The notes beneath the pieces are model-generated. The model worked only from the letters and a program-made list of their open reading frames with translations. It did not search any database and had not been told where the DNA came from. A stretch of 64,000 bases of DNA from a bacterium (GTDB lineage Bacteria; Chloroflexota; Dormibacteria; Aeolococcales; Bog-877): NCBI GenBank assembly GCA_021791415.1, contig JAJYWQ010000064.1, positions 91,446 through 155,445 on the forward strand, given 5' to 3'. Positions 12,480-62,833 of the stretch are shown here, piece by piece. Numbering within the stretch: position 1 is the stretch's first letter; each line of letters begins with the position of its first letter. The translations under genes were made by a program, and so were the position numbers.

Positions 12480-13357
12480 CCGCAATAGGGAACTCGAAGA
12501 CCGCCCTGGTGGTGGACAGCGGCGCCTGCCTGCCGCCGGAGCTGGCGGAGGCTTCCCAGGTGACGGTGGTGCCCATGTCCATCGAAGTGGACGGGCGCGT
12601 CCTCCGCGATGGCCTGGACATCTCCAGCGAGGAGCTGTACGCCATGCTGAGGTCGTCCGGGGCGCTCCCCAGCAGCAGCTCCCCGAGCCCGGGCGAGTAC
12701 CTTCGGGCGTTCCGGGAGGCGGCGGCGGAAAGCGTCCTCTGTCTAACCATCCCGGGGGGCTTCTCGTCCATGGTGCGCTCGGCCCGGGTGGCGGCCGAGA
12801 TGCTGCGCGACGAGCAGCCGGGCAAGAGGGTGGAGGTGATGGACACCGGCACCGCCGCCGCCGGGTTCACCCTGGTGGCCGAGGCTGCCGCCGCCGCCTG
12901 CGCGGCCGGTCTGGAGCTGGAGCAGGTGGCGGGTCATGTGGCGCGGCTGGCGGCCTCGACGCGGGTCATCGCGGCGCTGGAGACGATGCGCTTTTTGGTG
13001 CGTTCCGGGAGGGTGCCGGCGCTGGCGGGCAGGGGCAGCGACCTGCTGCGGGTGCGCCCGGTCTTCGCCTTCGTCGGCGGCGATGTCCGCCGGCTGGGGC
13101 TGGTCCAGGGCACGAAAAGGGCCCTGCGGACCGTAGTCGACTCCCTTTACGAGCAGATGCCCCGGGAGGCACCGGTGCGGCTGGCCGCCTTCTGCGGGGA
13201 CGCCGCCTCCGCAATGGAGCCACTGGTGGAGGCTCTGAGAGGGCGGTTCGGGGTCAATGAAGTTGAGCAGCTCAGCCTCACCCCGGTGATCGCCCTCCAC
13301 ACCGGCCCCGGCCTGTTCGGTGCCGCGGCCATCTGCGACCTGCCCCTCCCGGAATGA
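12476..13357 (+). CDS. DegV-family fatty-acid-binding protein
   Basis: 'TALVVDSGACLPPELA...VTVVPMSIEVDG' is a typical DegV N-terminus. GTG start overlaps the upstream stop (GTGA). The long ORF 12092..13357 in the track is an upstream read-through in another gene's territory. Confidence 0.7.
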   Translation: MTAIGNSKTALVVDSGACLPPELAEASQVTVVPMSIEVDGRVLRDGLDISSEELYAMLRSSGALPSSSSPSPGEYLRAFREAAAESVLCLTIPGGFSSMVRSARVAAEMLRDEQPGKRVEVMDTGTAAAGFTLVAEAAAAACAAGLELEQVAGHVARLAASTRVIAALETMRFLVRSGRVPALAGRGSDLLRVRPVFAFVGGDVRRLGLVQGTKRALRTVVDSLYEQMPREAPVRLAAFCGDAASAMEPLVEALRGRFGVNEVEQLSLTPVIALHTGPGLFGAAAICDLPLPE

Positions 13358-22989: not shown

Positions 22990-23360
22990 CGGACGCCGAG
23001 GTACCCCAGCCGATCTCCGACGTGCCCAGCCGGTGGGGAGGGCTGACCACGCCCCAGCTGGGCTGGCTCGGCGGTGCGGCCGCACTGCCGATGATCCTGG
23101 TCCACGCGCATTGCGGTCTGGCAGCGACTGTCACCGGGGCGGTGCCGTGGGCGGCCGGCTGTGTCGTGCTGGGCTTCGGCAGCTGCCGGGGCCGCCGGCT
23201 CGATGCCTACCTTCTTGACGCGGCGCGCTTCCGGACCCAGCGACGGCGGCTGTGCCACCCGGACGTGTCGGCGTCGCCCCAGGAGTTCCGCGCCGTGGAC
23301 GGCTCGGAGCGCTGGCCCCTGGCCTGGAACGTGCCCTCAGGAGCCCCGGCCGAGCGATGA
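22986..23360 (+). CDS. Small membrane protein, VirB3/TcpE/PrgI-like (set A)
   Basis: 125 aa with a two-TM hairpin ('LGWLGGAAALPMIL...AGCVVLGF'). ATGA overlaps with both the upstream and downstream genes. Immediately precedes VirB4, the canonical VirB3 position. Paralogous to the ORF at 36657. Confidence 0.5.
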   Translation: MTDAEVPQPISDVPSRWGGLTTPQLGWLGGAAALPMILVHAHCGLAATVTGAVPWAAGCVVLGFGSCRGRRLDAYLLDAARFRTQRRRLCHPDVSASPQEFRAVDGSERWPLAWNVPSGAPAER

Positions 23361-25558
23361 GGTTTCCCCCGCGCTCGGGATCAACCCTGGACCTCATCGA
23401 CCTCGCCTACCTGGAGGGCGGCGTTGTTCGCCTCCGGGACGGGCGCCACCGGGTGGGGCTGGAGCTGGCAGCCCTCAACCTTCTGCTGCGGTCCAGCGCC
23501 GAGCGGCAGCTGATCTGGAGGCGCTACTGGCGGGCGCTCTCGACCCTCTCGGGGCCCGTCTCCCTCTACTGCTTCTCCCGGCCCCTGTCCCCCTCCACCC
23601 AGCCGGCGGCCACCGCCAATGGGCGCCTGGACGCCGAGTACTCGGCATCACTTCTGGCCAGTGGCCAGGTCCACCTCCGTCACCACCTGGCTGTGATCTG
23701 GGACGACTCCTCCGCGAGCCTGCGGGGGGCCCTGCCAGGGAGACTCCGCCGAGGAGGAGCCCTTGACCTGGACCAGCGCCGGAGAGCCGTTGCGGCGGCA
23801 TTGGCCGGCCCTGGGCTGCGTCCCCGTCCCCTCGAGGACGGGGATTGGCTGCGCCTGCTGCAGGAGCTGACAGGTGGGCGGAGTGGACGGCCCACCGCCA
23901 GCTTCGCCAGCTGGGTGGCGCCAGAGACAGCCACGGTGAGGCCGGACCGGCTGGAGCTCTCGGACCGGGTGGCCCGCAGCCTGGTCGTGCGCGGCTTCCC
24001 CCGCCGTCTGCAGCTCGGCTGGCTAGCCCCTCTGGTCCTGGCCGCCCCTGGCCCGCTCCGGATGGCTCAGCACCTGTACCCGGTGCCCAAGGTGCACAGC
24101 CTGAGCCATCTGCGCCGGCGTATCCGCACCTTCGAGACCGGGCTGGAGGTGGACCGGCGCCAGGGTCGGCGCCCGGATGCCGGCACCCGGGCAGCACTCG
24201 AGGACGCCCTGGCCCTCGAGGAGCGGGTCCTTTTGGAGGAGGACCACCTGATGCGGCTGGTGACCTGCGTCACGGTGGAGGGGTCCAGCACGGCGGAGAT
24301 GGAGCTGGGGTGGGAGCAGGTGGTCAACACCCTCATCGAGCTTGGATGCACCCCGGTTCCGCTGTTCAACCGCCAGGCGGACGGGTGGCGGGCAACGCTG
24401 CCGCTCGGTGTGGACCCCCTCGGCTGGTCCCGGGACATGACGGCGGCAGCCACCGCCACCGCCATCCCGTTCCTGCGGGCGACCCTGGATGTGAGGAACG
24501 GGGTGCTGCTGGGGCCCAGCCCCAGCACGAGGGAGCTGGTGACCGTCGATCCCCTGGCCAGCTCCAACCCCAACCGCAACGTCCTGGTCCTGGGGACCTC
24601 CGGCGGTGGCAAATCCTTCACCTCCAAGTTGCTCGCTGCCCGCCTCTTCCTCCAGGGGTGCCGGCTCCGCTGCCTGGACCCCGCGGGGGAATACCTGAAG
24701 CTGGGGGCACTTCTCGGAGCGCGCTGCCTGGACCTGGGCGCGACCGGCGAGCCCGGCCTCAATGTTCTCGGTCCACCTGGCCAGGAGCCCGAGGGGCGGG
24801 TGGAGCGGGCCATGCCTCTGCTGACGCGGCTGCTGGGGTCGAGCCGGTCGGCCGCCGCGCGGGCCTCCCTGGAGGCCATCGGGCTGGCCGCTCTGACCGC
24901 CCTGCGGCTCCAGCCCGCTGAAGCTGGCCTCGCTGAGGTCTTGGAGCAACTGGAGGCGTCGGGCCAGGGGGAGCTCGCAGCCGGTCTGCGGCGGCGGGCT
25001 GCCGGCCCTGGTGCCGGCGTCTTCCAGGGCGCAGGCGGAGTCGGCGGCGATGACGCCCTGGTCATCTCCCTGCGCCACCTCCACGCCCGGGAGGAGCTCC
25101 TGGGGGCAGCCATGGAGCTGGTGCTCTGGCACCTCGAGGCAGACCTCGAGCACCCGCACTCCCGACCCACCCTGGTGGTCGTGGACGAGGCGGAGGTCCT
25201 GCTCTCCTCCCCATCGGGAGCGCGCTTCCTGGAGAGCATGGCCCGGCGGATCCGCAAACTGGGAGCCGGGCTGCTGGTGGTTTCCCAGGTGGTCGAGGAC
25301 TTCCTCAACTCTCCCGTGGGCAACGTGGTGATTCGCAACTGCCATACCAAGCTGCTGCTCCGCCAGGAGCCGGTGGCCCTTGCCGGGGTGCGGCGCGCCT
25401 TCTCGCTCTCCGAGGCGGAGTGCGAGCTCCTCCGAGATGCGGAGCCAGGGTGCGGGCTGGTGCTGGCGGGGGATGAGCATGCCAGCTTCCGAGGGGGAGC
25501 TCCTCAGGCTTGGTGGCCGGCCCTGACCACAGGTCAGCTGGCCGCGGGCTCCCCGTGA
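23357..25558 (+). CDS. VirB4/TrbE/TraC-family T4SS ATPase (set A)
   Basis: Walker A 'VLVLGTSGGGKSFTSKLL' followed by 'CLDPAGEY' (the DPxGE motif of VirB4). Walker B 'LVVVDEAEVLL'. 'LLVVSQ' motif. Confidence 0.85.
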   Translation: MRFPPRSGSTLDLIDLAYLEGGVVRLRDGRHRVGLELAALNLLLRSSAERQLIWRRYWRALSTLSGPVSLYCFSRPLSPSTQPAATANGRLDAEYSASLLASGQVHLRHHLAVIWDDSSASLRGALPGRLRRGGALDLDQRRRAVAAALAGPGLRPRPLEDGDWLRLLQELTGGRSGRPTASFASWVAPETATVRPDRLELSDRVARSLVVRGFPRRLQLGWLAPLVLAAPGPLRMAQHLYPVPKVHSLSHLRRRIRTFETGLEVDRRQGRRPDAGTRAALEDALALEERVLLEEDHLMRLVTCVTVEGSSTAEMELGWEQVVNTLIELGCTPVPLFNRQADGWRATLPLGVDPLGWSRDMTAAATATAIPFLRATLDVRNGVLLGPSPSTRELVTVDPLASSNPNRNVLVLGTSGGGKSFTSKLLAARLFLQGCRLRCLDPAGEYLKLGALLGARCLDLGATGEPGLNVLGPPGQEPEGRVERAMPLLTRLLGSSRSAAARASLEAIGLAALTALRLQPAEAGLAEVLEQLEASGQGELAAGLRRRAAGPGAGVFQGAGGVGGDDALVISLRHLHAREELLGAAMELVLWHLEADLEHPHSRPTLVVVDEAEVLLSSPSGARFLESMARRIRKLGAGLLVVSQVVEDFLNSPVGNVVIRNCHTKLLLRQEPVALAGVRRAFSLSEAECELLRDAEPGCGLVLAGDEHASFRGGAPQAWWPALTTGQLAAGSP

Positions 25559-30449: not shown

Positions 30450-30478
30450 CGTAACGCACGCGCTATGTGGGAGGACGT

Positions 30479-31435
30479 ATGCGCGGAGCCCAAGCCATTG
30501 GGCGCGTCTCGATTGCTGTGGCAATGGCCGGGTTGGTCTGGGTCTCCGCCGTGCTGGGACCAGGTCCGAACACCAGGGCCCAGCAGGGACTCGCCGGTGA
30601 CCAGGCCCAACTGACCCAGCTTCTGAACCAGCTCCGAGCCCAGGGCGACCTGGCGTCTCAGAGCCAGGTGATGGCGCTCCTGACCCAGATTGAGTCGGAG
30701 CAGGGCTACTTGAAGCAGCTGAACGCCAAGCTGGCTGCGGATCAGGCGACCTCGGCGACCCTGCAGCGGCAGATGGCGGGTGATCAGATCGCCCTCACCA
30801 ACCTGGTGTCCACCGCCTACGTGGACGGCAGCGGCAGCCAGCAGGTGGCGGAGGCGCTGGCCGCACCCAACCTCGGCCAGTTCCTCGCCAGCACCGCCCT
30901 GCCGTCGGCGGTGGCATCCCAGGTCGCCCAGTTGGTGGAGACCATCAAGCACGACCAGCAGGTGGTGGCCACGGCCGCAGCGCAACTGCAGGTCGACGAG
31001 AGCCAGGCGATGGTAGCCCAGGCGCAGCTGGGGCAGCGCTCCCAGCAGCTCCTGGCCGAGCTGACAACGCCCCAGCCGGCCATCGGCACCGGAAGCTGGT
31101 CCTTCGCCTTCGGTGACTGCACCTGGTGGGTCGCCAGCCAGAGGAAGGTCACCTGGGGCGGCAACGCCTACCAGTGGTGGGCCAACGCCGCGGCTGCCGG
31201 ATACGCCGAGGGCCAGACTCCCGAGGTGGGGTCGATCGTGGTGTGGGGCATGGACGTGCCCGGAGAGAGCTGGGGGTACGGCCACGTGGCGTACGTGGTG
31301 GCGGTCAAGCCGGGGTCCTTCGAGGTCTCGGAGATGAACTTCTACGGCGTCCCGGGGGGCGGGTGGGATCGAGTCGACTACAGATGGATTCAGGATGGCG
31401 CAGGGTACCTGGGTTTCATATACGGCCCCGCTTGA
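30479..31435 (+). CDS. Secreted coiled-coil + CHAP-domain cell-wall hydrolase (PcsB/RipA-like architecture)
   Basis: Signal peptide. Long Q/A-rich coiled coil. C-terminal CHAP domain ('GDCTWWVASQRK', 'GHVAYVVAV'). GGGAGGA RBS upstream of ATG 30479. Confidence 0.75.
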   Translation: MRGAQAIGRVSIAVAMAGLVWVSAVLGPGPNTRAQQGLAGDQAQLTQLLNQLRAQGDLASQSQVMALLTQIESEQGYLKQLNAKLAADQATSATLQRQMAGDQIALTNLVSTAYVDGSGSQQVAEALAAPNLGQFLASTALPSAVASQVAQLVETIKHDQQVVATAAAQLQVDESQAMVAQAQLGQRSQQLLAELTTPQPAIGTGSWSFAFGDCTWWVASQRKVTWGGNAYQWWANAAAAGYAEGQTPEVGSIVVWGMDVPGESWGYGHVAYVVAVKPGSFEVSEMNFYGVPGGGWDRVDYRWIQDGAGYLGFIYGPA

Positions 31436-32021
31436 GCTGACGCGGGCGCCCTCGGCGCCCGCTCAGCGAAGGGCATGGCCCAGGCTGGCCTCGAGGCTAA
31501 GGTGGGGAGCCGCCGCGCTCTGCCTGGCCGCGCTGTCCCCGGCACTGGGGGCGCTCAGCACCGGGGAGGCGGTCGGCCCCCCGTCTCCCGCCCCGGCGCT
31601 GGTGGCCCAGATCGCCGCCCAGGGCCGCAACCTCCTCAGCAGCACCGGCTACGAGATCACCATGCCGCTGGCGGTGACCAAGGTGACCCCGCCTCCGCCG
31701 CCCCAGCCATCCCTCCCCTACGGCAATGCCTTCTGGCAGCCGGTGCCAGAGCCGCCGATCGGAACCATCAAGCAGATCATCTGGGCCGCCGCCCAGAAGT
31801 ACAACGTCTCCTACGCCTGGCTCCTCGGGGTGGCCCAGTGCGAGTCCGGCCTCGACCCCACCGACGTCAACCGCTCCTCCGGGGCCAGCGGGCTCTTCCA
31901 GTTCATGCCCGCCACCTTCTACGGCCACGGAGGCACCGACATCTGGAACCCCACCCAACAGGCCGACATCGCCGCCAAGATGTTCTCCATAGGGGAGTCG
32001 TCGGAGTGGGTCTGCAAGTAG
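31395..32021 (+). CDS. Lytic transglycosylase (SLT-domain) protein
   Basis: 'AQCESGLDP' and 'SGASGLFQFMPATF' SLT motifs. The only in-frame ATG (31395) overlaps the upstream gene by 41 nt, so the start is uncertain. Confidence 0.65.
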   Translation: MAQGTWVSYTAPLELTRAPSAPAQRRAWPRLASRLRWGAAALCLAALSPALGALSTGEAVGPPSPAPALVAQIAAQGRNLLSSTGYEITMPLAVTKVTPPPPPQPSLPYGNAFWQPVPEPPIGTIKQIIWAAAQKYNVSYAWLLGVAQCESGLDPTDVNRSSGASGLFQFMPATFYGHGGTDIWNPTQQADIAAKMFSIGESSEWVCK

Positions 32022-36656: not shown

Positions 36657-36914
36657 ATGGCCCTCGGGCTGCCGCCGGCCCGCCTGGCCCTCCTGGGGCT
36701 CGTGGTGGCGGGAGGGGCGGCGGCGCTGCGGGCTCCGCTCCCGCTGGAGCCGAGAGCTGTCCTGGCCGGGCTGGTGCTCGGCCCGGGCTCGCTCCTCGCC
36801 TGGGCCAGGCTGCTGGAGCTCTCCGCCCTGGGCTGGTGCGAGCGGCTGGCCGCCTACTGGCTGCGCTCCCTCGCCGGGCTGGCGGAACGGTCGTCTTGGA
36901 TGGATGCCGCATAG
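36657..36914 (+). CDS. Small two-TM membrane protein, VirB3/TcpE-like (set B)
   Basis: GAGGAG RBS. 'GLPPARLALLGLVVAGGAAAL' parallels 'GLTTPQLGWLGGAAAL' of the set-A protein. It overlaps the downstream ATPase ORF by up to 79 nt, so it may be shorter or spurious. Confidence 0.4.
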   Translation: MALGLPPARLALLGLVVAGGAAALRAPLPLEPRAVLAGLVLGPGSLLAWARLLELSALGWCERLAAYWLRSLAGLAERSSWMDAA

Positions 36915-38800
36915 CTCCAGCGAGGTCTTCCGAGGCCGAGCGGGCGATCGAGGTCGCCGGGCCGGACATCCTCGACGCCCGCCCTGTGCCCAGAGCCCAG
37001 CTGCTGGCCGGGTTCGAGGCCTGGCTGGACCAGCTGGATGCCCCGGTCCGCCTCACCGTCACCTCGCGAGCCGCTGAGGGCCGGCGCCGGCGGTCGGTCT
37101 GGCTGCGGTCGGCCGGCGCCGAACGGGCCCCCCAGGCGGCGGCGCAGCTGGAGAGGCTCTGCGGGGCGAAGGTGCGCGGATCGAGGACCTTCCCGCCCCT
37201 GGTGGAGGGTCCCGGCCGGGAGCGAGTCACCGGAGTCGATTGGGCGGGCCGGTGGGTGGAGTGCCTCCGCCTCACCACGCTGCCACGGGTCCCGGTCGAA
37301 GCGGGTTGGCTGTGGCAGCTGGTGGGCGAGCCTCAGGACCTCGATCTCACCGTGAGCATTTCGCCGGTGGCCGCCGGCACCGCCGACCGCCGACTCCGCC
37401 ACCGCTTGAGGGAGCTGGCCGCCCGCGAGCTGGAGACAGATCGGGGGATGCCCGACCCGGCCCTGGTGGTCGAGAGAGCTGCGGCCACCCGCCTCAGGGA
37501 GGTTCTGGCGCGGGGAGAGGGGCGGGCGTTCGAGGTGGCGGTCTCGATGGCGGTCGGGGGAGGTGCCGTGGCGGAGGTGAGGGCGGCCGCGGCGCGGCTG
37601 CGACGCCGGGCGCTGGGGATGCGGGCCCAGCTGGCCCCGGCCTGGCTGGACGAGGGTCCGGCCCTGCTGGAGGCGAGGGGATGTCGGAGGCCGCGACGAC
37701 CCTTCATCCGGCTGCTCACCACCCCCGAGGTGGCCACCTTCTGGCCCTGGTTGGACGGGCCAGGGGAGCTGGAGCCGCAGAGCTGCCGGATTGGCCGCCA
37801 CCTGCGCACCCAGGGGCCGGTGGGACTGAAGCTGGCCGCGTCGGCCGCCGCCCCCAACTCCAACTGTTGCGTCATCGCCACCTCGGGCGCGGGCAAGTCC
37901 TACCTGGCGCGCGTGGTGGGTGCGGCTCAGGCGCTGGCCGGGACCCAGACGGTGGTCGTGGACCCCGAGAACGAGCACCGGCTCTGGTGTGAGGCCGTGG
38001 GCGGGCGCTACCTCGACCTGGGCCGGGGCGGCGGGCTCGGCTTCAACGTCTTCGAGGCCGGCACTCCCGGCGAGGGGGAGCTCGCCGCCCGGGAGCTGGT
38101 CGAGCTGTTGGCCGGCCCCCTCTCGCCGGCGGAGGCCGGCGCCTTCCTGGAGGGGTGCGCCGCTGCCCGGCCGAGTGCCGGTGGCCGGACACCTGTGCTG
38201 GCGGACCTGCTGGGGAGGCTGGCCGGCGACCCCCACGGACGGAGCCTGGCCGCCCGGCTGCGGCCGTGGGTCGAGGGGCCAGCCGGGCTGCTCTTCAGCG
38301 GTCCCGGCCGGGGCCCGGAGGTGACCCGCGCCCTGGGGGTGGGGCTGCGCGACCTTCCCGAGCGCTGGCGCGCGGGGGCCGCCTTCCTGGTTTCGCGATG
38401 GCTGTGGGCCTGGGCCCAACGGGAGCCCGGTCCCAAGCAGGTCATCATCGACGAGGCCGGCCTGCTGGCCGCCCAGCCCCAGCTGGCCGAGCTGATGGGG
38501 CAGATGGCCCGGCGGCTGCGCAAGTATTCCGGCTCCCTGCTGCTTCTGACCCAGACGCCCCGCGACCTGGCGGTCGAGGGATTTGGCGAGCTGGTCGCCA
38601 GCAACTCCGCGACCCTCCTGGTGGGGTCGTCGACGGGGCCCGGGGTCCAACGCCTCAGATCGGGCTTCCACCTCAGCGACGAGGACTGCGAGTGGCTGCA
38701 GCGGTGCTCCCGAGGGGAGTTCCTCATGCTGGCCGGGGCCACCCAGGCCCGGGTCAGGGTGGAGGCGCCCGACGAGGGGACGGGCGACGACCGGGGATAG
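36836..38800 (+). CDS. VirB4/TrbE-family T4SS ATPase, second paralogue (set B)
   Basis: Walker A 'CVIATSGAGKSYLARVV' followed by 'VVDPENEH'. Walker B 'VIIDEAGLL'. 'LLLLTQTP'. The N-terminal region aligns with the set-A VirB4 ('GGTVVLDG...PRAQLLAGFEAWLDQL' vs 'GGVVRLRDG...ERQLIWRRYWRAL'). The GTG 36836 start is uncertain. Confidence 0.8.
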   Translation: MRAAGRLLAALPRRAGGTVVLDGCRIAPARSSEAERAIEVAGPDILDARPVPRAQLLAGFEAWLDQLDAPVRLTVTSRAAEGRRRRSVWLRSAGAERAPQAAAQLERLCGAKVRGSRTFPPLVEGPGRERVTGVDWAGRWVECLRLTTLPRVPVEAGWLWQLVGEPQDLDLTVSISPVAAGTADRRLRHRLRELAARELETDRGMPDPALVVERAAATRLREVLARGEGRAFEVAVSMAVGGGAVAEVRAAAARLRRRALGMRAQLAPAWLDEGPALLEARGCRRPRRPFIRLLTTPEVATFWPWLDGPGELEPQSCRIGRHLRTQGPVGLKLAASAAAPNSNCCVIATSGAGKSYLARVVGAAQALAGTQTVVVDPENEHRLWCEAVGGRYLDLGRGGGLGFNVFEAGTPGEGELAARELVELLAGPLSPAEAGAFLEGCAAARPSAGGRTPVLADLLGRLAGDPHGRSLAARLRPWVEGPAGLLFSGPGRGPEVTRALGVGLRDLPERWRAGAAFLVSRWLWAWAQREPGPKQVIIDEAGLLAAQPQLAELMGQMARRLRKYSGSLLLLTQTPRDLAVEGFGELVASNSATLLVGSSTGPGVQRLRSGFHLSDEDCEWLQRCSRGEFLMLAGATQARVRVEAPDEGTGDDRG

Positions 38801-40194: not shown

Positions 40195-41091
40195 ATGCCC
40201 GGGCCACCCCAGTTCGGCATCAACCCTCTGGGGGTACTGGCCGGGCTCTTCGACGGGATCCTCTCCGAGTTCGTCAGCAGCGCCCGAGGAGCCCTGGACG
40301 CGGCCCTCAAGAGCTACCTCTTCGGCACCTATGACGCCGCCGGGGGACGCGCCCAGGCGCCCTTCACCGGGACGCCGGGCCTGGCCGGCCTCAACCACCT
40401 GCTGGCGGCTGCGGGGGGGGCGCTGCTGCTGGCGGTGCTGCTGTACAGCTCGCTGCGCACGGTGGCGGACCTGGGCGCGGTCCGTCACCAGCTTCAGCAG
40501 GTGCTTCCCCGGTGCCTGGCAGCGGTGGCGCTGGCCACGGTGAGCCTGCCCCTCCTGCAGCAGGTGATCGATCTCAACAATGCCCTCTGTGCCGTGGTGG
40601 TCGGCGGCGCCCAACTCTCCCTGAGCGCCCTCCCCTGGAGCTCTCCGCTCAGCCAGCAGGGGGTCCAGTCCGCGGGGGAGAACCTCTTCCTCCTGCTCTT
40701 CGCCGCGGCCCTCGTGGTGGCCGTGGTGATCCTGGCGCTGAGCTACGTGGTCCGCTACACCCTGCTGGCCGTCCTGTGTGCCGCCGCCCCCCTGGCCGCC
40801 TACTGCACCGTGCTGCCCGAGACCCGGGGATTCGCCCGGCAGTGGGGCAGGCTCCTGGTGGTCTCACTGTTCATGCAGTTCGGCCAGCTCCTCGTGCTGC
40901 GGGTGGCGGTGCAGCTGGCGTTCACCAGGGGGGGCGGGCTGGCCGGAATGCTCTACGCCCTCGCCAGCCTCTACCTCATGCTCCGGGTCCCGGGAGCGCT
41001 CAACGTGGCCACCCACTACGAGTCCAGCGCCGAGGCCGCGGCCCGGAGGTGGAGCCGCGCGGTGCGGCGCCTATCCGTGGGAGAGCTCTGA
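40195..41091 (+). CDS. Polytopic membrane protein, VirB6/TrbL-like (set B)
   Basis: Roughly 6 TM helices. Position after the pilin-like gene mirrors set A. Confidence 0.5.
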   Translation: MPGPPQFGINPLGVLAGLFDGILSEFVSSARGALDAALKSYLFGTYDAAGGRAQAPFTGTPGLAGLNHLLAAAGGALLLAVLLYSSLRTVADLGAVRHQLQQVLPRCLAAVALATVSLPLLQQVIDLNNALCAVVVGGAQLSLSALPWSSPLSQQGVQSAGENLFLLLFAAALVVAVVILALSYVVRYTLLAVLCAAAPLAAYCTVLPETRGFARQWGRLLVVSLFMQFGQLLVLRVAVQLAFTRGGGLAGMLYALASLYLMLRVPGALNVATHYESSAEAAARRWSRAVRRLSVGEL

Positions 41092-49737: not shown

Positions 49738-50316
49738 CGCGTGCAGCCTACACGAAGAAGGCCGCGGCGCTGCTATCGTCGCCGGGGTGGAGCCCTCCCC
49801 CCCACCGCCGATCCGGGCCGAGCTGGTCGAGAGCCGGAGAGCTCGTCCCCGGGCGACGGGTGCCGTCCTGGTGGCCGCGCTCCCGCTGCTGGCCCGGCTC
49901 GCGGTCTGGTGGCTGTCACGCCCCCGCTCGGGATCCGCTCCGGAACGGGGGGCGCCGGCCTCCCAGGTAGAGCGCACGGAGATGTGGGTCTCCAGGCGCT
50001 GGCCCGGCAGATGGAAGCTCCGCGTCGTCAGCACCAGGTGGATGGTGGCGCCCCCACCTCCTCGCGGCGGCAGCGCGGCTTCCTGGCTCCGGCTCCTGGC
50101 CCGCGGCGGGACCCCGGCCGCCGGTGGCCCCCCCTCCGATCTCCTCGGGTTGCCGGCGCCCACCGGGGCCGACAAGAGGCTGGGCTGAGGGCGCAGCCCG
50201 GGGTGACCGGGACTGACGTTCTCCCGGGATGCCGTCGCCGGGCCGTCACCGCTCTTGCGGACTGCCGCGATCGCTGTTAGGATCGCGGCGAGACAGACTT
50301 GCTCTCGTCCCTCCCC

Positions 50317-51465
50317 ATGTCTCGACCACTGAAATCGCGGCTGCTGCGCCTGACCGCCCAACTGGGTCTGTTCGGCACGCTGGTGCTGGGTGCGGCGGCG
50401 ATCGTGGCCCGGCCGGCAGGGGCCAGCAACATCGGGGCACAGATCGCTCAGTTGCAGGCTCAGGAGAGCGCCCTCCGCAGCCAGCTTGCCGGCATCCAGG
50501 GGCAGGCCTCCTCGGCAGCCCAAGAGGCGGCGGCCACCCAGCAGCAGGTGGCCGCCGCCCAGGCCAAGCTCGCGCAGGGGCAGGCTGAGCTGGCCCAGGC
50601 GAACGCCGCCCTGGCCCAGACCAACGACCGCATCGGGCAGACGCAGGCGCAGATCGTCCTGGACCGCACCCAGCTGGCTCAGCTGGTCCGGGAGATGTAC
50701 CAGCACGGTAACGCCAACAACCTCTCGACGGCGATCGCCGACAGCTCGGGGGTGACCCAGTTCTTCGACACCACGCTGCAGCTCCAGACGGTGGGTCAGC
50801 AGTTCAGCTCCCTCACCCAGGAACTCACCTCCGAGGAGGCCCAGCTCCGGACCCTCCAGGCGAGCCAGCAGGCGCAGCAGCAGAGGGTCACCGCCCTGGT
50901 GGCATCGTTCCAGGCGGCCGCCAACCAGCTCCAGGCCCAGGAGCTCAGCTTCCAGAGCCAGGCCAGCTCACTCTCGGGTCAGGCGGGTCAGCTCGCCTCC
51001 CAGATCCAGCAGCTCGCGTCCCAGATCCAGACCCTGCAGGCGGAGGAGGCGGCGATCAGCGCCTACGGCGGCCCCGCCAGCGCCGAGGAGGGGACCATCC
51101 TGAAGACCTTCCCGGCACCGGCACCGGCCTATCCGGACGGGTACCCCTGGGGTCAGTGCACCTGGTTCGTGGCCGGGCAGACCAACGTGCCCTGGCAGCC
51201 GCGAGGCAACGCGGACCAGTGGATCGGCGCGGACTACTCCATGGGCACCCCCTACGCCGTGGGCTCCACCCCGAGGGTGGACTCCATGGTGGTCTTCGAC
51301 CCCGGGGGGATCTACGACTACTACTACGGGCACGTCGCCTGGGTGGTGGCGGTCCTGGGGCCCACCACCTTCATCGTGGAGGAGGACAACTTCTACGGGT
51401 ACGGGCTGGCGGACCAGCGCGAGATCTACACCCTGCAGGGGGTCGAAGGTTTCATCTACGGTTAG
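50317..51465 (+). CDS. Secreted coiled-coil + CHAP-domain cell-wall hydrolase (second PcsB-like paralogue)
   Basis: Signal peptide. Long Q/A-rich coiled coil. CHAP domain ('GQCTWFVAGQ', 'GHVAWVVAV'). Confidence 0.75.
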   Translation: MSRPLKSRLLRLTAQLGLFGTLVLGAAAIVARPAGASNIGAQIAQLQAQESALRSQLAGIQGQASSAAQEAAATQQQVAAAQAKLAQGQAELAQANAALAQTNDRIGQTQAQIVLDRTQLAQLVREMYQHGNANNLSTAIADSSGVTQFFDTTLQLQTVGQQFSSLTQELTSEEAQLRTLQASQQAQQQRVTALVASFQAAANQLQAQELSFQSQASSLSGQAGQLASQIQQLASQIQTLQAEEAAISAYGGPASAEEGTILKTFPAPAPAYPDGYPWGQCTWFVAGQTNVPWQPRGNADQWIGADYSMGTPYAVGSTPRVDSMVVFDPGGIYDYYYGHVAWVVAVLGPTTFIVEEDNFYGYGLADQREIYTLQGVEGFIYG

Positions 51466-53966: not shown

Positions 53967-54043
53967 TGGTACCCCGTAGCGGATTCGAACCGCTGATCTC
54001 CGCCTTGAGAGGGCGGTGTCCTGGGCCACTAGACGAACGGGGC
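53967..54043 (-). tRNA. tRNA-Glu (anticodon CUC)
   Basis: The reverse complement folds as a cloverleaf: 7-bp acceptor GCCCCGU/ACGGGGU, short D-stem, anticodon stem CCGCC/GGCGG with loop CUCUCAA, T-arm AGCGG-UUCGAAU-CCGCU, and an encoded CCA. Confidence 0.85.
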
Positions 54044-55916: not shown

Positions 55917-57110
55917 TCAGCTGGGCATCTGCTGCAGCTGGTCTCCGATGCCGGCGATCTTGCTGGCCCAGAGAGGGTCAGAGGCGTAGTCGACGTTCAT
56001 CCCGGCAGGGGTTGGTCCGTTGTAGTACTTCCCGGTGGGCACGGTCCCCGGCTGCCCGGGGTAGTTGGGGACCTGGGACCCTGGGGGTGTGAGGTAGTAC
56101 ACGGAGACGTACCAGGAGACGAAGGAGATGCACGCCTGGTCCGAGGGGAAGGTGGCCCCATCGCCGAAGGGGTTGGCGTCGTAGGCCTCGAATCCGAAGA
56201 GGTTGTGCTTCTGGAGGTACAGCTGCGAGGTCCCGAACCCGGTCTCCAGAACCGCATCCGCGACCAGGTAGACGGCCGACACATGGTTGGCGGCCTCAGC
56301 CTGGAGGAAGTAGCTCGAATCCGCCTCCAGCGGGGTGCCCTGCAGGAACTCCTGGATCTGCTGGAGGGTGACGCTGCTGGGCAGGGTCAAGTTGGTGGTC
56401 GTGGAGAAGGGTCCTGAGGCCGGGGTGGGAGTCGGTGGCGGAGGCGGGGTGGGGGTCGGTGGCGGAGGCGGGGTGGGGGTCGGCGGGGTCGGTGGGACCG
56501 GCGTTGCTGGGGTGCCCGGCTGGGTCGCCACCGTGGGAGAGGCCGAGGGCTGGCGGCTGGACTGGGCGCTGGCCGGCGGCGCGGGGGGATTGGCGGCCAG
56601 GTAGGCGGCCGCGATCTCTTCGGCCATCAGGCGGGCCGCGGTCACCCGGGCCTGGGCCTGGCGGGCGACGAGGGTGGCCTCGTCGGCCTGCTGCCGGCGC
56701 ATCTCCACCCTGAGCTGGGCGATCGCCGCCTGCTCCCCCTGGGTGAGCCGGGACAGCACTATCTGGGAGTCCAGGGCGCTGTTGAGGGAGGAGCTGCCGA
56801 TGACGTCGAGCATTCCCCCGGAACTCCCGGTGTACTCGGCGGCGACGAGGGCCGCCAGTTGGGACCGAGCCCGTCCGATCTCGGTCCCTTCCCGGGCCAG
56901 GCGTCCCCGCAGCGTCTGCACCTGCGCCAGCAGGGTTTGCTCCTTGGCCCGGGCCTGGGCGACCAGCGCCGCGAGCGAGGTGACCCGGGAGGAGGTGGGG
57001 GTGGCAGCTCGCGCGCCGCTGCCCGGGGCAGCCGAGACCGCCAGAACCGCCATCGCCCCCGCCGCCAGCAGGGCAGCCAGCGACCTCCAGATCCTGGGTT
57101 TCCCTTCCAC
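55917..57110 (-). CDS. Secreted coiled-coil + GH73-like (glucosaminidase) cell-wall hydrolase with Pro/Thr linker
   Basis: Signal peptide and coiled coil. 'PPTPPTPTPPPPPTPTPPPPPTPTP' linker. C-terminal 'SAVYLVADAVLETGFGTS...NLFGFEAYD' resembles the GH73/FlgJ motif. Confidence 0.7.
   Translation of the reverse strand: MEGKPRIWRSLAALLAAGAMAVLAVSAAPGSGARAATPTSSRVTSLAALVAQARAKEQTLLAQVQTLRGRLAREGTEIGRARSQLAALVAAEYTGSSGGMLDVIGSSSLNSALDSQIVLSRLTQGEQAAIAQLRVEMRRQQADEATLVARQAQARVTAARLMAEEIAAAYLAANPPAPPASAQSSRQPSASPTVATQPGTPATPVPPTPPTPTPPPPPTPTPPPPPTPTPASGPFSTTTNLTLPSSVTLQQIQEFLQGTPLEADSSYFLQAEAANHVSAVYLVADAVLETGFGTSQLYLQKHNLFGFEAYDANPFGDGATFPSDQACISFVSWYVSVYYLTPPGSQVPNYPGQPGTVPTGKYYNGPTPAGMNVDYASDPLWASKIAGIGDQLQQMPS
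56435..56510. repeat. Tandem ~24-nt direct repeat (ggtggcggaggcggggtgggggtc x2-3) encoding the Pro/Thr linker
   Basis: Read directly in the sequence, inside the GH73 hydrolase gene. Confidence 0.5.
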
Positions 57111-57192: not shown

Positions 57193-58662
57193 TCAGCTGG
57201 GGCAGCCGGCCGGGGCCGGGCCCAGGCTCAGGGGTGGTGACGCTGCCATCTCACCCGCCCCCGCCAGCGCGACCATCGCCACCGCACCACCCGCCGGGAC
57301 GCTGACCGTGGGCTGGGCCTCGACGTACGTGTAGAAGGCGGGGGCGTTCACCACCCCGCTGGCCACGGTGGCCACACCCCCCGTGCACCGATCCACCTCT
57401 TCCAGCTCCCAGCGCACCGAGTCGGAGGGGTGGGAGCCGAGCTGGGCGGTGACGTTGAACTGGCAGGCGCCACCGCCCGGGGAACACGAGGCGGTCAGAG
57501 CGACCTGCTGGACCGGGGGGGCGGAGGGCGGCCCGAGCAGGGGTATCTCCTCGGGCGGCCCGGATGGCGGAGCGGAAGGCGGAGGCGATGTCGGCGTTGC
57601 GGGCGGGCCGGCCGGAGTGGGGGTGAAGGCCGGCGGCGCCGGCGTGGACGCGGTGGCATGGGGGGCGCGGACCGGAGCCGGCGGATGGCCGCCCAAGGCC
57701 GCCGCAAGCACCCCTGCCGAGATCAGGACCACCGCCGCTCCCAGCAGGGCGAGGGCGGGCGATCTGCCCAGTGCCGGCCGCACGCCAGCACCCGAGCGCG
57801 TGGGCGGCTGGAGAGCGGCCCGGAGCGGCCCGGCGGGGACGGCGCCGGCAGGCATCGCCGCAGCGTCCGGCGGAGGGTCCCCGGCCAGGGTGGGCACCTC
57901 TCTCACGGTCGCGACCGCAGGAGCGTGCCCGGTCGCCGGGAGGGCCTGGGGCAGGCTGGCGCCCAGGGCACCCAGCTGGCTCCGCACTCGGCGGCGCTGG
58001 CGCGCATCCAGGGGCATGGCCCACCGCCAGGCGGCGAGCGCCAGCCCGGCGTCCGCCTCCTCCGCGGCGGCCCCTAGCCCCATGGCCACCGAGCGCAGCA
58101 GGGAGAGGGCCGACCCGTCCCTTCGGGCGGCGCCCGTGACCGAATCCAGCACCCGCTCAAGGAGCTGCCCGGCACGCCCCAGGTCAATGCCCGGAGGCTC
58201 GGCCCCGAGCGAGGCCCAGAGCCCCGGCTCCGCCAACCGAATGCGGCCGTCCGGGCCGACGAGCAACCGCTCCGCATCCAGGCGCTGCTGCACCAGCCCC
58301 CGCCGGTGCAGTGCGGCCAGCGCGGCCAGCATCCCGTCGCCGAGAAGCGCCGCCTGCTCCAGGGTGAGCGGTACCAAGCGGAGGACGGCGCGCAGCTCCG
58401 CTCCCTGTCGCGACCGGAAGGCACAGATCACGTCCCGTCCCTCTGCCACGGCGGCCTCCGGGGGCAGAGTCAGGGCGCCGGGGAGGCGCGCCGCCGCTCG
58501 TAGCCGCTCCACCAGCTCCTTCGCCTCGCGGGGGGAGCCGAGCTGGCGGCGGCGCAGCTCGCAACTCCTCCCCCCCACCGTGGGGCAGGTCCCCACCGGC
58601 TGCTCGGGTAGGTCGACCAGCGGGACCGTCGACCCGTCCCGAAACGAGATCAGTTCAGCCAT
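57193..58662 (-). CDS. Membrane protein with degenerate protein-kinase-like domain (pseudokinase-like), extracellular Pro-rich + Cys-containing C-terminal region
   Basis: 'LHRRGLVQQRLDAERLLVGPDGRIRLAEPGLWA' resembles a kinase catalytic loop/DFG region but is degenerate. A TM segment ('ALALLGAAVVLISAGVLAAAL') follows. Start at ATG 58662. Confidence 0.45.
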   Translation of the reverse strand: MAELISFRDGSTVPLVDLPEQPVGTCPTVGGRSCELRRRQLGSPREAKELVERLRAAARLPGALTLPPEAAVAEGRDVICAFRSRQGAELRAVLRLVPLTLEQAALLGDGMLAALAALHRRGLVQQRLDAERLLVGPDGRIRLAEPGLWASLGAEPPGIDLGRAGQLLERVLDSVTGAARRDGSALSLLRSVAMGLGAAAEEADAGLALAAWRWAMPLDARQRRRVRSQLGALGASLPQALPATGHAPAVATVREVPTLAGDPPPDAAAMPAGAVPAGPLRAALQPPTRSGAGVRPALGRSPALALLGAAVVLISAGVLAAALGGHPPAPVRAPHATASTPAPPAFTPTPAGPPATPTSPPPSAPPSGPPEEIPLLGPPSAPPVQQVALTASCSPGGGACQFNVTAQLGSHPSDSVRWELEEVDRCTGGVATVASGVVNAPAFYTYVEAQPTVSVPAGGAVAMVALAGAGEMAASPPLSLGPAPAGCPS

Positions 58663-58734
58663 CGTTGCTGATGACAGGCGAGGGTTACAGTTGACGCGGG
58701 CGCGCATGCAGGGTCCGGTTGGCGGGTGACGGAG

Positions 58735-59760
58735 ATGAGCTTGCTGTCGGCAGAGTTGGGCATCGACCTGGGGACCGCCAACACGGTGGTCTGCCGCCGC
58801 GACGGCACCATCCTTCTGAACGAGCCCTCGGTCATGCTGGTGACGGTGGGGGCGGACGGCAACCGTCGCCCCATCCTGGTCGGCCGCCAGGCCCGCGAGC
58901 TCACCGGACGGACGCCGGTGGGCATGGCCACGGTTCGACCGATCCGGGACGGCGTGGTCACCGACCTGCAGTCAGCCAAGGGGTTCATCAACGTGGTGAT
59001 CCACCAGGTCACCCGCCGCCCCTGGGAGCGCTTCCGCCCCCGGGCGATCTGCGGGGTCCCGGCCGGAGCGACCGGGTTGGAGAGGCAAGCCCTGGTGGAG
59101 GCGCTGGAGGAGGCGGGGATCGGGCACGCTGACCTCATCCCCGAGCCCGTGGCGGGGGCGATCGGCTGTGGCATCGACCCCCTGGAGGCGCGGGCGCACA
59201 TGGTGGTGGACGTGGGCGGAGGGACCGCCGAGGTGACCGCCATCTGCTTCGGGGGCATCCTGGCGGCCAGCTCATGCCGGGTGGCGGGCGACGAGATGAC
59301 CGCTGCCCTCAACCAGTACCTCCGCCAGGAGCACCACCTGATCGTCGGGGAGCTGACCGCCGAGGACATCAAGATCCGGCTGCGCAAGGTGGACTCCGCC
59401 CCCAGCCCCATAGTGGTCGAGGGGCGCGACGTGTTCAGCGGAAAGCCCCGGATGCAGACCCTGGACCCGGACGAGGCGGCGCTCGCCATCCGCCCCACCG
59501 TGGACGGGATCGTGGAGGCGCTGGCCGAGGTCCTGGACCGCCTGCCGCCCCAGGCGGTGGGCGACATCATGCAAGGAGGGGTGCTGGCGTTCGGCGGCGG
59601 ATCGCTGCTGGAGGGGTTCCAACGCCATCTGGAGGACGCCCTGGGCTTCTCCGTGACGCTGGCGGAGCGACCGCTCACCTGCGTCGCGGAGGGGGCGGCG
59701 AAGGCCCTCTCGCAGCCCCGGGTCCTGGCGGCGTTCAAGGGAGCCCCTCCCCAGGCCTGA
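58735..59760 (+). CDS. mreB: Rod-shape-determining actin-like protein MreB
   Basis: 'LGIDLGTANTVV' phosphate-1 motif and 'VVDVGGGTAEV' phosphate-2 motif. Confidence 0.85.
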   Translation: MSLLSAELGIDLGTANTVVCRRDGTILLNEPSVMLVTVGADGNRRPILVGRQARELTGRTPVGMATVRPIRDGVVTDLQSAKGFINVVIHQVTRRPWERFRPRAICGVPAGATGLERQALVEALEEAGIGHADLIPEPVAGAIGCGIDPLEARAHMVVDVGGGTAEVTAICFGGILAASSCRVAGDEMTAALNQYLRQEHHLIVGELTAEDIKIRLRKVDSAPSPIVVEGRDVFSGKPRMQTLDPDEAALAIRPTVDGIVEALAEVLDRLPPQAVGDIMQGGVLAFGGGSLLEGFQRHLEDALGFSVTLAERPLTCVAEGAAKALSQPRVLAAFKGAPPQA

Positions 59761-59770
59761 GCAGCACCGC

Positions 59771-62700
59771 TCACAGGTGGCCGGTGGCGGCCCAAAGGCG
59801 GGCCGCATGGGCGGCCCCGGGAGCCACCGCCAGCGCCGGGTGCCCCTTCGGTGGAGGCGCGACCGGTGGGGAGGCCGGAGGGGGGCCGGCGATGGGCCCG
59901 GGGGTGGTGGAGGTGATCGCCGCCTGGTGGGCGAAGTAGTACTTGAGAAGCTGGGCGACCGCGGGCTGGTCGGTGTAGTAGCCCTGGCCGCCTCCCCGCA
60001 CCAGCATGCTCGCCACCACCTGCGGGGTGGACATCGGGGCCATGGCGGTGAACCAGGCGTCAGGCCCGCCGTTGGGGGCTGTGGGGTCCTGGGCGGTTCC
60101 CGTCTTGCCCCCGGCGTCCACGTTCAGGGGATTGAGCATGTCGGCCGTCCCCTGGGTCACCGCCAGCCGGAGCCCCTGGCGCACCGGCCCCAGCTCTGAG
60201 GCCCAGGGCAGCGGCCGGGGCGCCGGAGCACGGAGCGGGGTGAGGGAGGAGTCGCTCTCCAGCGCCATGCCCAGCCGCGGAGTGACCTTGGCTCCGGTCC
60301 CCACCTCGGCGGTCCAGACCGCGTCCTGGATGGGGGTGGCCGTCACGTATCCCTGCCCGATGCCCAGGATCACGGTGGAGCCGGGGTACCAGGTCTGGCC
60401 CAGGCTGGCCACCGAGCTGGGGGTTCCCAGGTATCCCGGGCTCTCCCCGGGGAGGTCGATTCCGGTGGGCTGGCCGACCCCCATGGTCTGGGCCGTGCTG
60501 ATGAGGTTCTGGGCCCCCAGAGCCACCGCCAGCTTGTAGAAGTAGACGTCGTTGGACCAGGCGATGGCCTCCGGCAGGTCCTGGGGAGGGAGGGCCTCCC
60601 AGTTGTCGAAGGTGTGCCCGTCGTAGGTGAAGGTGTAGCCGGTGGGGATCACCTCGGAGGGGGGGATGGCTCCGTGGTAGACGTCCGCCGAGGAGACCAC
60701 CAGCTTGAAGTTGGAGCCCGGGGGCATCGCCGTCTGGGTGGCGTGCTCCAGGAGCGGGCTCCCGGGGGCGCTCAGGAGCTGCTCGATGGCGGCGGAGTCC
60801 CGGGGCGCCTCGAAGATCTGGTCGTTGTACGCCGGCCAGCTGGCCATCGCCAGCACCTGCCCGTTCCTGGGGTCGAGGACCACCAGGGCCCCCTCGTCCC
60901 CCCGCTGGGAGCCCGGGTAGGCACCGGAGATGGCCTTCTGCAGTAGTTGGGTAGCCAGCTCTTGCAGCGGCAGGTCCAGTGACGTGACCAGCGTCCGGCC
61001 GTTCACCGGCGGGACGGTGCGCCCCCAGCCGACCGGCACCCCCTGGGCGTTGACCAGGATCCCCTGCCACCCGTACGTGCCCCGCAGGACGGAGTCGTAC
61101 TGGGCCTCCAGCCCCGCCTGGCCCAGCTGGGCCCCGTACGGGAGAAGACCGATCTGTTTGACCTGCTGCGGGGTCTCGACCCCGGTGTAGCCGAGGATTG
61201 GGCCCAGCAAGGCGCCGTAAGGGTAGACGCGACCCAGCGCGGGCTCCACGATCACCCCGGGAACGGAGGCGGCCTGGAGCATCACCGCACGCACAGTGGG
61301 CAGCTGGGCGGCCAGGGTCACCACCCACCCGCCCTGGGTGGGCTGGGCCATCTCCGAGCGCAGCTGGCTGAGCGGCTGGCCGAGGAGCGCCGCCAGCTGG
61401 GACCAGCGGTCCTGGGGCACCAGCTGAGGGACCGCCACCACCTGGTCGGCGGCGGGGTCGGCGGCCAGCACGGTGCCGTGACGGTCCTCTATGAGGCCGC
61501 GCTCCGGGTTGAGGGGGATCCACCTGGTCACCTCGGTGAGGGCCGCCTGCCGGGCCTGGCTGCCGTCGGCCTGCTGGAAGTGATAGGCGACTCCCCCCAT
61601 GAGCAGGAGGCCGGCCGCCAGGAAGGAGGCCGCGGTCCTGGCGAGCCGGGGGCTCTGGCGGAGGCGCGGGGGAAGCCTCCAGAGCCGGCGGCGCTCGGCG
61701 TCCACTCGCCCGCCGAGGATCACCCCGAAGGCCGCCAGGTGGGCCACCGTCACGGTGCCGCCGTATGCCAGGAAGGGGATGGGGACACCGGCGAGCGGGA
61801 GGAGTCCCAGGTTGCCGCCCACGGAGAGGACCACCTCGCCGCCGACCAGCACCGCCATGATCCCCGCCATGAGGGCCACCTGGGGGGTTCGAGCCGAGGC
61901 CGCCGCCGACGCCAGTCGCCAGGTGAGCAGCGCGGCTGCGCCCAGCGCCACCACCCCGGCCACCAGCCCGTACTGCTCGATCAGGCTGGCGAAGGCGAGG
62001 TCGGTCTCCCGGGCCGGCAGGTAGGAGGCGAGCAGCTGGGCGATGGTGGAGTGGCCGATCCCGAGGAGCCCGCCGGAGGCGATGGCGATGTGGGCCTGCT
62101 CCAGGGTGAAGCCCCCGCCCGAGCCGCCCGCCCCGGACAGGAAGCTGTGCAGCCGGGCCAGCTGATAGGGCCTCAGGAGGTGCAGCCCCAGCGGCAGGAG
62201 GACCAACCCCAGAGCTCCGAGCCCCCCGATCACCCGCCAGCGCACCCGGCCCAGGACCAGCGCGGCGACCGCGATCAGGACCAAAAGGGCCGAGGTGCTG
62301 AGGTCGGGCTCGAGGAGGGTCAGGCCCACGGGGATCCCCGTGAGCAGGAGAGCAGCTCCCACCCGGGTGCGCTCGCGCCAGTCCCGCCGCGACATCACCT
62401 CGGCCAGGACAAGTGCCAGCCCCAGCTCCGCCAGCTCCGACGGTTGGAGCACGAAGGAACCGACGTCCAGCCATCGCTTGGCCCCGTACGCCTCGACCCC
62501 GTGGGCGGCCACGCCGAGGAGGAGGAGGACCGAGCCGGCGTACGCCAGCCTCCCGAGCCAGGGCCACCAGCGGCCGGGGGTGCGCCAGGCCCAGAGCATC
62601 ACCAGCAGCCCAAGGACCACCGACACGCTCTGGTGGAGGGCGAGGGAGGCGTCCCCCACCGCCACCAGGTTCATCACCCCCAGGGTGGCCAGCACCCCGA

Positions 62701-62833
62701 TCGCCGCAATCATCACGGGATCGACGCCCGGGGCCGCCTGGGCGATCGCCGGGCCGAGCCTCGACACCGGGGCCAGAGGGCTCCGGCGAGGGCGGCTCAT
62801 GAGGCGGTGGCGGCCACGGGGCATGGAGGGCAT
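59771..62833 (-). CDS. Fused SEDS glycosyltransferase (RodA/FtsW family) + class B penicillin-binding protein (PBP2-like transpeptidase)
   Basis: N-terminal ~400 aa form a 10-TM SEDS domain with 'LGLLPLAGVPIPFLAYGGT'. A TM anchor and PBP-dimerisation region ('TRWIPLNPERGLIEDRHGTVLA') follow. The transpeptidase motifs are 'PGSNFKLVV' (SxxK), 'SND' and 'KTGTAQ'. It is one continuous 1020-codon frame. Confidence 0.8.
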   Translation of the reverse strand: MPSMPRGRHRLMSRPRRSPLAPVSRLGPAIAQAAPGVDPVMIAAIGVLATLGVMNLVAVGDASLALHQSVSVVLGLLVMLWAWRTPGRWWPWLGRLAYAGSVLLLLGVAAHGVEAYGAKRWLDVGSFVLQPSELAELGLALVLAEVMSRRDWRERTRVGAALLLTGIPVGLTLLEPDLSTSALLVLIAVAALVLGRVRWRVIGGLGALGLVLLPLGLHLLRPYQLARLHSFLSGAGGSGGGFTLEQAHIAIASGGLLGIGHSTIAQLLASYLPARETDLAFASLIEQYGLVAGVVALGAAALLTWRLASAAASARTPQVALMAGIMAVLVGGEVVLSVGGNLGLLPLAGVPIPFLAYGGTVTVAHLAAFGVILGGRVDAERRRLWRLPPRLRQSPRLARTAASFLAAGLLLMGGVAYHFQQADGSQARQAALTEVTRWIPLNPERGLIEDRHGTVLAADPAADQVVAVPQLVPQDRWSQLAALLGQPLSQLRSEMAQPTQGGWVVTLAAQLPTVRAVMLQAASVPGVIVEPALGRVYPYGALLGPILGYTGVETPQQVKQIGLLPYGAQLGQAGLEAQYDSVLRGTYGWQGILVNAQGVPVGWGRTVPPVNGRTLVTSLDLPLQELATQLLQKAISGAYPGSQRGDEGALVVLDPRNGQVLAMASWPAYNDQIFEAPRDSAAIEQLLSAPGSPLLEHATQTAMPPGSNFKLVVSSADVYHGAIPPSEVIPTGYTFTYDGHTFDNWEALPPQDLPEAIAWSNDVYFYKLAVALGAQNLISTAQTMGVGQPTGIDLPGESPGYLGTPSSVASLGQTWYPGSTVILGIGQGYVTATPIQDAVWTAEVGTGAKVTPRLGMALESDSSLTPLRAPAPRPLPWASELGPVRQGLRLAVTQGTADMLNPLNVDAGGKTGTAQDPTAPNGGPDAWFTAMAPMSTPQVVASMLVRGGGQGYYTDQPAVAQLLKYYFAHQAAITSTTPGPIAGPPPASPPVAPPPKGHPALAVAPGAAHAARLWAATGHL

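Follow-up and report, generated by a model that had tools for sequence, protein, structure and literature searches.

A RodA-PBP2-type fusion gene convergent with mreB in Dormibacterota, probably encoding a single-chain peptidoglycan synthase

Natural fusions of a SEDS protein and a penicillin-binding protein (PBP) within a single open reading frame (ORF) have been noted previously (Nygaard 2023, PMC10449877, citing the 2006 RHA1 genome), and a 2025 InterPro survey found 117 fused proteins of SEDS and class B PBP (bPBP) with a length of about 950 aa (PMC12516126). The 947-aa protein of Rhodococcus jostii RHA1 has the order glycosyltransferase (GTase), pedestal, transpeptidase (TPase), is flanked by mreB and has been inferred to function in elongation, and the organism keeps, besides the fusion, a distinct FtsW/FtsI pair within the dcw cluster (PMC12516126). 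Dormibacterota are not mentioned in the main text of that survey. Here, a gene of this kind is described from a soil bacterium of the Dormibacteria (Candidatus Dormibacterota), in a stretch of 64,000 nucleotides (hereafter the window) from contig JAJYWQ010000064.1 of assembly GCA_021791415.1. Its product is very probably a Rod-system-type peptidoglycan synthase that unites two activities in one chain, with a RodA-like and a PBP2-like half. Since this kind of fusion, including its mreB neighbor, is already in print, the gene is a Dormibacterota member of a known and compact family.

The window protein resembles the R. jostii-type fusions in its domain order, its single ORF of ~950-1050 aa, its mreB flank and its inferred role in elongation, whereas it differs from them in its origin from Dormibacterota, its K136E change, its slightly greater length and its Pro-rich C-terminal tail. 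Engineered RodA-linker-PBP2 fusions, which complement Escherichia coli, polymerise lipid II and are active both in vivo and in vitro (PMC6207328, PMC10449877), have the same chain order from RodA to PBP2, but their Gly/Ser linker is replaced in the window protein by a natural, conserved link of 23 residues. One engineered fusion yielded a cryo-EM structure (PDB 8TJ3; PMC10449877). Both halves of the window protein find their best sequence matches in the RodA-PBP2 complexes (Thermus thermophilus 6PL5/6PL6; E. coli 8TJ3), with which they agree in their catalytic residues, although identity to the solved RodA and PBP2 is only ~25-30% and no mreC/mreD was found near the window gene. Class A PBPs (GT51 plus transpeptidase) likewise hold polymerisation and crosslinking at 1:1 in one chain, but their soluble GT51 fold is unrelated to the polytopic SEDS fold and they lack a pedestal. 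In the Paraphotobacterium marinum fusion (PMC12516126), the same three modules are joined in the opposite order, pedestal, TPase, GTase, by a long protein-spanning linker, which represents an independent fusion event. The initial annotation, made from the DNA sequence alone, had regarded the order RodA then PBP2 as the reverse of the usual mrdA-mrdB order. This is correct with respect to E. coli-like operons only, as the separate genes of Streptomyces sp. NRRL F-6131 (L017), which overlap by 7 bp, also run from SEDS to bPBP. Loss of the stop codon in such an overlapping arrangement would create a fusion, although the Streptomyces pair, two polypeptides from another subfamily, shares only ~28-32% identity with the window protein.

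The fusion ORF encodes 1020 aa from an ATG start in one unbroken frame. Pfam searches identified FTSW_RODA_SPOVE (PF01098) at residues 47-373 (E = 1.2e-58, 199.3 bits versus a cut-off of 26.4), PBP_dimer (PF03717) at residues 441-601 (E = 1.9e-23, 84.3 bits) and Transpeptidase (PF00905) at residues 648-961 (E = 3.7e-41, 141.7 bits). Together with hydropathy and an AlphaFold2 (AF2) model, these matches show that the original description, a SEDS polymerase with ten transmembrane (TM) helices followed by a TM anchor, a pedestal and a class B transpeptidase, was accurate. Most likely, the known SEDS-bPBP mechanism acts inside one molecule. The RodA-like SEDS domain would use Asp278 as catalytic base to polymerise lipid II into glycan strands on the external side of the membrane. 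Past helix 10, the chain would re-enter the cytoplasm, pass through a short, conserved, Arg-rich linker and recross the membrane as helix 11, the ordinary bPBP anchor, to reach the pedestal and the PBP2-like transpeptidase, whose Ser707 would crosslink the new glycan strands. The fusion would fix polymerase and crosslinker at 1:1, and the conserved convergent mreB would most likely provide the cytoskeletal guide. We infer enzymatic activity, a role in elongation and a functional link to MreB for the fusion protein.

The fused state is conserved among relatives. The 120 best matches in a search of 5.8 billion proteins, with identities from 94% to 48%, all carry the three domains within 937-1126 aa, except for protein P0045. 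The exact sequence of the window protein had no match in a contig index. The junction, at about 61577-61714, lies within the 61.5-61.8 kb region that the initial annotation had singled out for possible sequencing or frameshift errors; in eight Dormibacterota loci from metagenome-assembled genomes (MAGs) of different samples, assembled independently, the single ORF runs through the junction without a stop or frameshift. The junction is free of indels in 26 of 27 sequences, down to 47% identity, and the Rhodococcus plasmid copies (41-42% identity) share its length and motifs. Overall, the Rhodococcus and Carbonactinospora proteins are 41-50% identical to the window protein over 84-95% of its length. 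This conservation of the junction across the family points to a single old fusion event, and the fusion most probably arose once, from adjacent genes in the order SEDS, bPBP. Close relatives show several-fold more synonymous than non-synonymous differences across the SEDS, pedestal and transpeptidase regions, and the fusion gene is under purifying selection.

None of the same-family relatives examined is split at the SEDS/PBP junction, the arrangement that had been named as contradicting a genuine fusion. In the Dormibacteria MAG GCA_054609635.1 (L026), the source of P0045, an in-frame TAG (AAG to TAG, 5885-5890) occurs at the equivalent of about residue 632, between pedestal and transpeptidase, and divides the product into SEDS plus pedestal (629 aa) and transpeptidase (401 aa). 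The split reflects pseudogenization, variation within the population or an assembly or sequence error in that MAG. On a 2.5-kb, low-quality contig (L025, protein P0131), the frame is lost ~30 residues past TM helix 11, near the contig end. Neither L026 nor L025 was accepted as a natural two-gene state, as their breaks lie elsewhere than at the SEDS/PBP junction. Four apparent proteobacterial or Streptomyces fusions (L012, L013, L014 and L017) were also rejected, being ordinary separate gene pairs merged by tblastn; L012 and L013 have separate genes in the order mrdA, mrdB.

A HMMER search against 1.84 billion representatives at 50% identity (E ≤ 1e-10) returned 19,884 proteins, including about six full-length fused representatives (971-1052 aa) and some junction-spanning fragments. 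The matches that follow directly after the fused representatives are unfused proteins of the PBP2 type with 30-38% identity. In terms of diversity, the fused family is thus rare and compact, yet it is frequent in soil metagenomes. The rarity attributed to such fusions is borne out by this small number of full-length clusters, but the fusion is not new, natural examples having been reported in PMC10449877 and PMC12516126.

Both halves of the protein appear to be of the elongation type. Among NCBIfam models, pbp2_mrdA (TIGR03423) scores best for the PBP half (361.5 bits versus 63 for FtsI) and rodA_shape (TIGR02210) scores best for the SEDS half (213.3 bits versus 178 for ftsW). Among solved structures, the PBP half scores 185 with T. 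thermophilus PBP2 and 160-175 with MrdA versus ~89 with FtsI, and the SEDS half scores 121-137 with RodA (E. coli RodA, 137) versus ~104 with FtsW. The neighboring mreB matches NCBIfam model NF010539 with 308 bits, above the cut-off of 293, and its stop codon is 10 bp from that of the fusion in the window. The original proposal of a RodA-PBP2-type natural fusion convergent with mreB is supported. The convergent arrangement is present in 8/8 Dormibacterota loci and also in L018, L020, L021, L022 and L026. The 3' ends of the two genes overlap by 74 bp (12870-12943, as annotated) in the actinomycete Carbonactinospora thermoautotrophica (L018) and by 182 bp (13017-13198, as annotated) in a 1.4-Mb MAG contig (L022), and MreB identity tracks fusion identity (56% and 69%). 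Scanning the region where the two genes converge predicted no promoter or terminator. Synteny extends to relatives that share 93% and 67% identity, where one flank of the fusion has glpX, a GBBH-like_N gene and a response regulator gene, all divergent from it, and the other flank has mreB in convergent orientation, a membrane protein of ~460-500 aa without annotation and a protein with a glucosaminidase domain. Across the 8 genomes examined, the fusion looks like a core, syntenic gene of Dormibacterota.

Several observations weigh against a RodA-PBP2-type synthase of the Rod system. The fusion and mreB are convergent and hence not co-transcribed. Neither MreC nor MreD gave a Pfam match among the ~45 genes called in the window or in the ±10 kb inspected at the related loci L018-L022. 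In three Rhodococcus strains, the fusion is carried on megaplasmids of 300-350 kb; the copies L023 (pRB29) and L024 (pRWAY03) encode 941 aa and lie among copper/metal-resistance genes, and no mreB is present within 8 kb of the two inspected plasmid copies. The MreB link is therefore not universal, and these plasmid copies suggest that the fusion gene is able to move, and may even work, independently of mreB. Moreover, both halves fall below the NCBIfam equivalog cut-offs (361.5 < 455 and 213.3 < 336.7); they are named PBP2-like and RodA-like for this reason, and strict RodA/PBP2 orthology is not established by these scores. Finally, the window protein has Glu in place of the conserved QPSExAK lysine of SEDS proteins (E. 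coli K117), and the equivalent K119N substitution in Bacillus subtilis SpoVE is severe in vivo, as cited in PMC10449877.

The absence of mreC/mreD nearby and the plasmid copies also bear on a different role for the same biochemistry, in which MreB and the fusion would form a specialised or accessory wall module, for a spore, cyst or dormancy wall or for stress remodelling, instead of the vegetative elongasome. Streptomyces has an MreB-dependent spore-wall complex, which provides an analogy. Members of the family are found in Actinomycetota that sporulate or grow at their poles (Carbonactinospora, Rhodococcus), and the location of the Rhodococcus megaplasmid copies among metal-resistance genes suggests an accessory role there. 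In Dormibacterota, however, the chromosomal neighborhood with glpX, the response regulator and the glucosaminidase gene is conserved in 8/8 genomes and the purifying selection is like that of a core gene, and we consider an accessory module unlikely.

The least ordinary features of the locus are the conservation of the linker, the pairing with mreB across two phyla without mreCD found nearby, and the clade-wide K136E change. It is conceivable, though rather doubtful, that the fusion and the convergent mreB constitute an elongation module of two genes, complete in itself, that needs no MreC, MreD or RodZ and is shared by Actinomycetota and Dormibacterota through vertical descent or transfer, in which the Arg-rich linker with its RRRLW...PRLxR motifs would be an engagement site for MreB or a regulator and not a passive tether.

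A divisome-type FtsW-FtsI fusion that makes septal wall outside the Rod system is improbable. The scores of the SEDS half separate RodA from FtsW only modestly and both halves lie under the equivalog cut-offs, but the PBP half clearly favors PBP2/MrdA. In addition, mreB is the conserved neighbor and no dcw genes are found near the fusion, and in R. jostii a separate FtsW/FtsI pair exists in the dcw cluster besides the fusion (PMC12516126).

Hydropathy, AF2 secondary structure and the distribution of Lys and Arg residues (K/R) support ten SEDS helices with cytoplasmic N- and C-termini, and the large loop bearing the catalytic Asp is placed outside the membrane. The K/R counts fit the positive-inside rule, with 7 in the N-terminal tail, 0-3 in the inner loops and 5 in the linker. 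The cytoplasmic linker (residues 374-396, 23 residues) has the sequence GGRVDAERRRLWRLPPRLRQSPR; its five K/R fall in residues 382-395, bounded by AF2 helices, and it carries the conserved RRRLW...PRLxR motifs at a fixed length. In the AF2 model, one helix at residues 396-435 leads from the linker into the pedestal, in agreement with the expectation that helix 11 would be the PBP2 anchor exiting to the extracytoplasmic side. By analogy with RodA-PBP2 complexes, helix 11 would pack intramolecularly on the SEDS domain. Residue 9 of T. thermophilus PBP2, in the membrane anchor of that protein, aligns to residue 401 of the window protein (phmmer), indicating that the linker consists of the RodA tail and the PBP2 tail with no insertion. 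Because the SEDS C-terminus and the bPBP N-terminus are both cytoplasmic, joining SEDS to bPBP is topologically simple. The AF2 model has a mean predicted local distance difference test (pLDDT) score of 78 and a predicted template modelling (pTM) score of 0.63, and its periplasmic bPBP fold matches PDB structures of PBP2/PBP3 with TM-scores of 0.72-0.80 (Foldseek).

Cleavage of the polypeptide in the linker after insertion would yield separate mature RodA and PBP2. A minor fraction of a synthetic E. coli RodA-PBP2 fusion is indeed cut (PMC6207328, S5 Fig), and the linker, with a pLDDT of 53-62, is the least confident part of the membrane region in the model. Nevertheless, the linker is short and keeps a fixed length, its sequence is conserved, neither a protease site nor a partner can be recognised, and intact synthetic fusions are functional, so that processing into two proteins seems very unlikely.

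The catalytic residues are retained in both halves. D278 aligns with D262 of E. coli RodA (8TJ3_B) and D255 of T. thermophilus RodA (6BAR), and W121, E133, D177 and P273 align with W102, E114, D159 and P257 of E. coli RodA, where D262A and P257A are inactive, D159V is reduced and W102 is functionally important (PMC10449877). The PBP active-site motifs are S707-N-F-K710 (SxxK), S760-N-D (SxN) and K910-T-G912 (KTG). In a 27-sequence family alignment reaching 47% identity, W121, E133, D177, P273, D278, S707, K710, S760, N761 and K910-T-G are invariant. The middle position of the second PBP motif varies in the Rhodococcus copies only, which have S-D-N, and column 762 is accordingly Asp, or Asn in this variant. 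Position 136 is Glu in the window protein and in ten aligned relatives at ≥56% identity, and Lys in sixteen more distant aligned fusions and in the Rhodococcus copies. One clade thus appears to tolerate a charge reversal (Lys to Glu) at a conserved SEDS lysine. No column that would compensate K136E by a charge swap was found in the family alignment.

The fixation of K136E across these relatives and the severe SpoVE phenotype would be consistent with a SEDS half that has lost polymerase activity in this clade and now does no more than anchor or scaffold the transpeptidase in the membrane. On the other hand, E. coli RodA K117N has a modest effect on GTase activity in vitro (PMC10449877), the other five SEDS residues are invariant and the SEDS domain is itself under purifying selection, making a polymerase-dead SEDS half very improbable. 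Lastly, although high-GC genomes yield many long spurious ORFs, as is common in this region of ~73% G+C, and L026 has its in-frame TAG, an artefact in which a frameshift from sequencing or assembly, or the loss of a stop, merged two adjacent genes can be practically dismissed, since third-position GC stays at 0.85-1.0 in one frame over the entire ORF, junction included (which, with the ORF listing, also confirms the single 1020-codon frame described at the outset), eight independent assemblies and the best 120 matches (48%-94% identity) keep one three-domain protein, P0045 excepted, the junction length is conserved, and the L026 stop lies away from the SEDS/PBP junction.

Table 1 Coordinates of the fusion gene, its parts and the adjacent mreB in the window
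Feature	Position	Strand	Remark
Whole fusion gene	59771..62833	-	1020 codons + stop
SEDS (RodA-like) glycosyltransferase domain, residues 47-373, ten membrane helices	61715..62695	-	Pfam, structure alignments
Catalytic Asp278 codon (E. coli RodA D262, T. thermophilus D255)	62000..62002	-	Alignment
Codon 136, Glu replacing the conserved Lys of the QPSExAK motif (E. coli K117)	62426..62428	-	Clade-specific
Arg-rich cytoplasmic linker, residues 374-396, RodA C-terminal tail + PBP2 N-terminal tail	61646..61714	-	
Eleventh membrane helix, bPBP anchor, residues 397-419 (helix runs on to 435 in the model)	61577..61645	-	
bPBP pedestal (PBP_dimer), residues 441-601	61031..61513	-	Pfam
Transpeptidase domain, residues 648-961	59951..60892	-	Pfam, motifs, structure match
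C-terminal tail, Pro-rich, poorly conserved, low-confidence, residues 970-1020	59774..59926	-	
mreB, convergent	58726..59760	+	MreB_Mbl 1.5e-90

Several other genes of the window are related to the cell wall or lie close to the fusion and mreB (Table 1). The ORF adjoining mreB (57193-58707, minus strand, 504 aa) has no Pfam match and a weak kinase-like stretch, and over its last ~90 residues it resembles (E = 6e-12) the C-terminal end of a Pkinase-domain protein at the same place beside mreB in L022; possibly, it encodes a degenerate membrane protein of the Ser/Thr kinase type that is conserved beside the module. Its longest-ORF start is 18 bp from the mreB start, and one of the two starts is probably mis-set. 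Secreted proteins of the peptidoglycan-hydrolase type, with a glucosaminidase domain (55917-57110, minus strand) and a CHAP domain (50299-51465, plus strand), are encoded nearby, and in L021 the glucosaminidase gene again accompanies the module in synteny. A class A PBP of 712 aa with Transgly and Transpeptidase domains is encoded at 16246-18384 (plus strand), so that the organism has a GT51-type bifunctional synthase besides the SEDS-bPBP fusion. The window contains no second SEDS or bPBP gene.

In addition, a run of conjugation or type IV secretion-like genes extends over ~19000-41100, including a VirD4/TraG coupling protein (19023-20576), VirB4/TraG-like ATPases (23252-25558 and 36836-38800) and TrbL_4 (40195-41091), together with wall hydrolases of the CHAP (30467-31435) and SLT (31395-32021) types. 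This run may be an integrated conjugative element. A tRNA-Glu (CTC) at 53967-54043 (minus strand) is the sole RNA gene detected in the window by an Rfam scan.

In summary, the architecture, the gene neighbor and the proposed structural use of this fusion have all been anticipated in the literature, and the contribution of the window is modest, comprising what appears to be a core Dormibacterota gene, a probably ancient and conserved junction and a seemingly tolerated charge reversal at a SEDS lysine. The convenience for structural work that the initial annotation had foreseen is reduced, as synthetic RodA-PBP2 fusions have already been used for this purpose (PMC6207328, PMC10449877; PDB 8TJ3), while a naturally fused, thermally robust orthologue may still be a handy reagent. 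For the biology of the family, an obligate natural 1:1 coupling of SEDS polymerase and transpeptidase would favor the SEDS-bPBP pair as the functional unit of wall synthesis.

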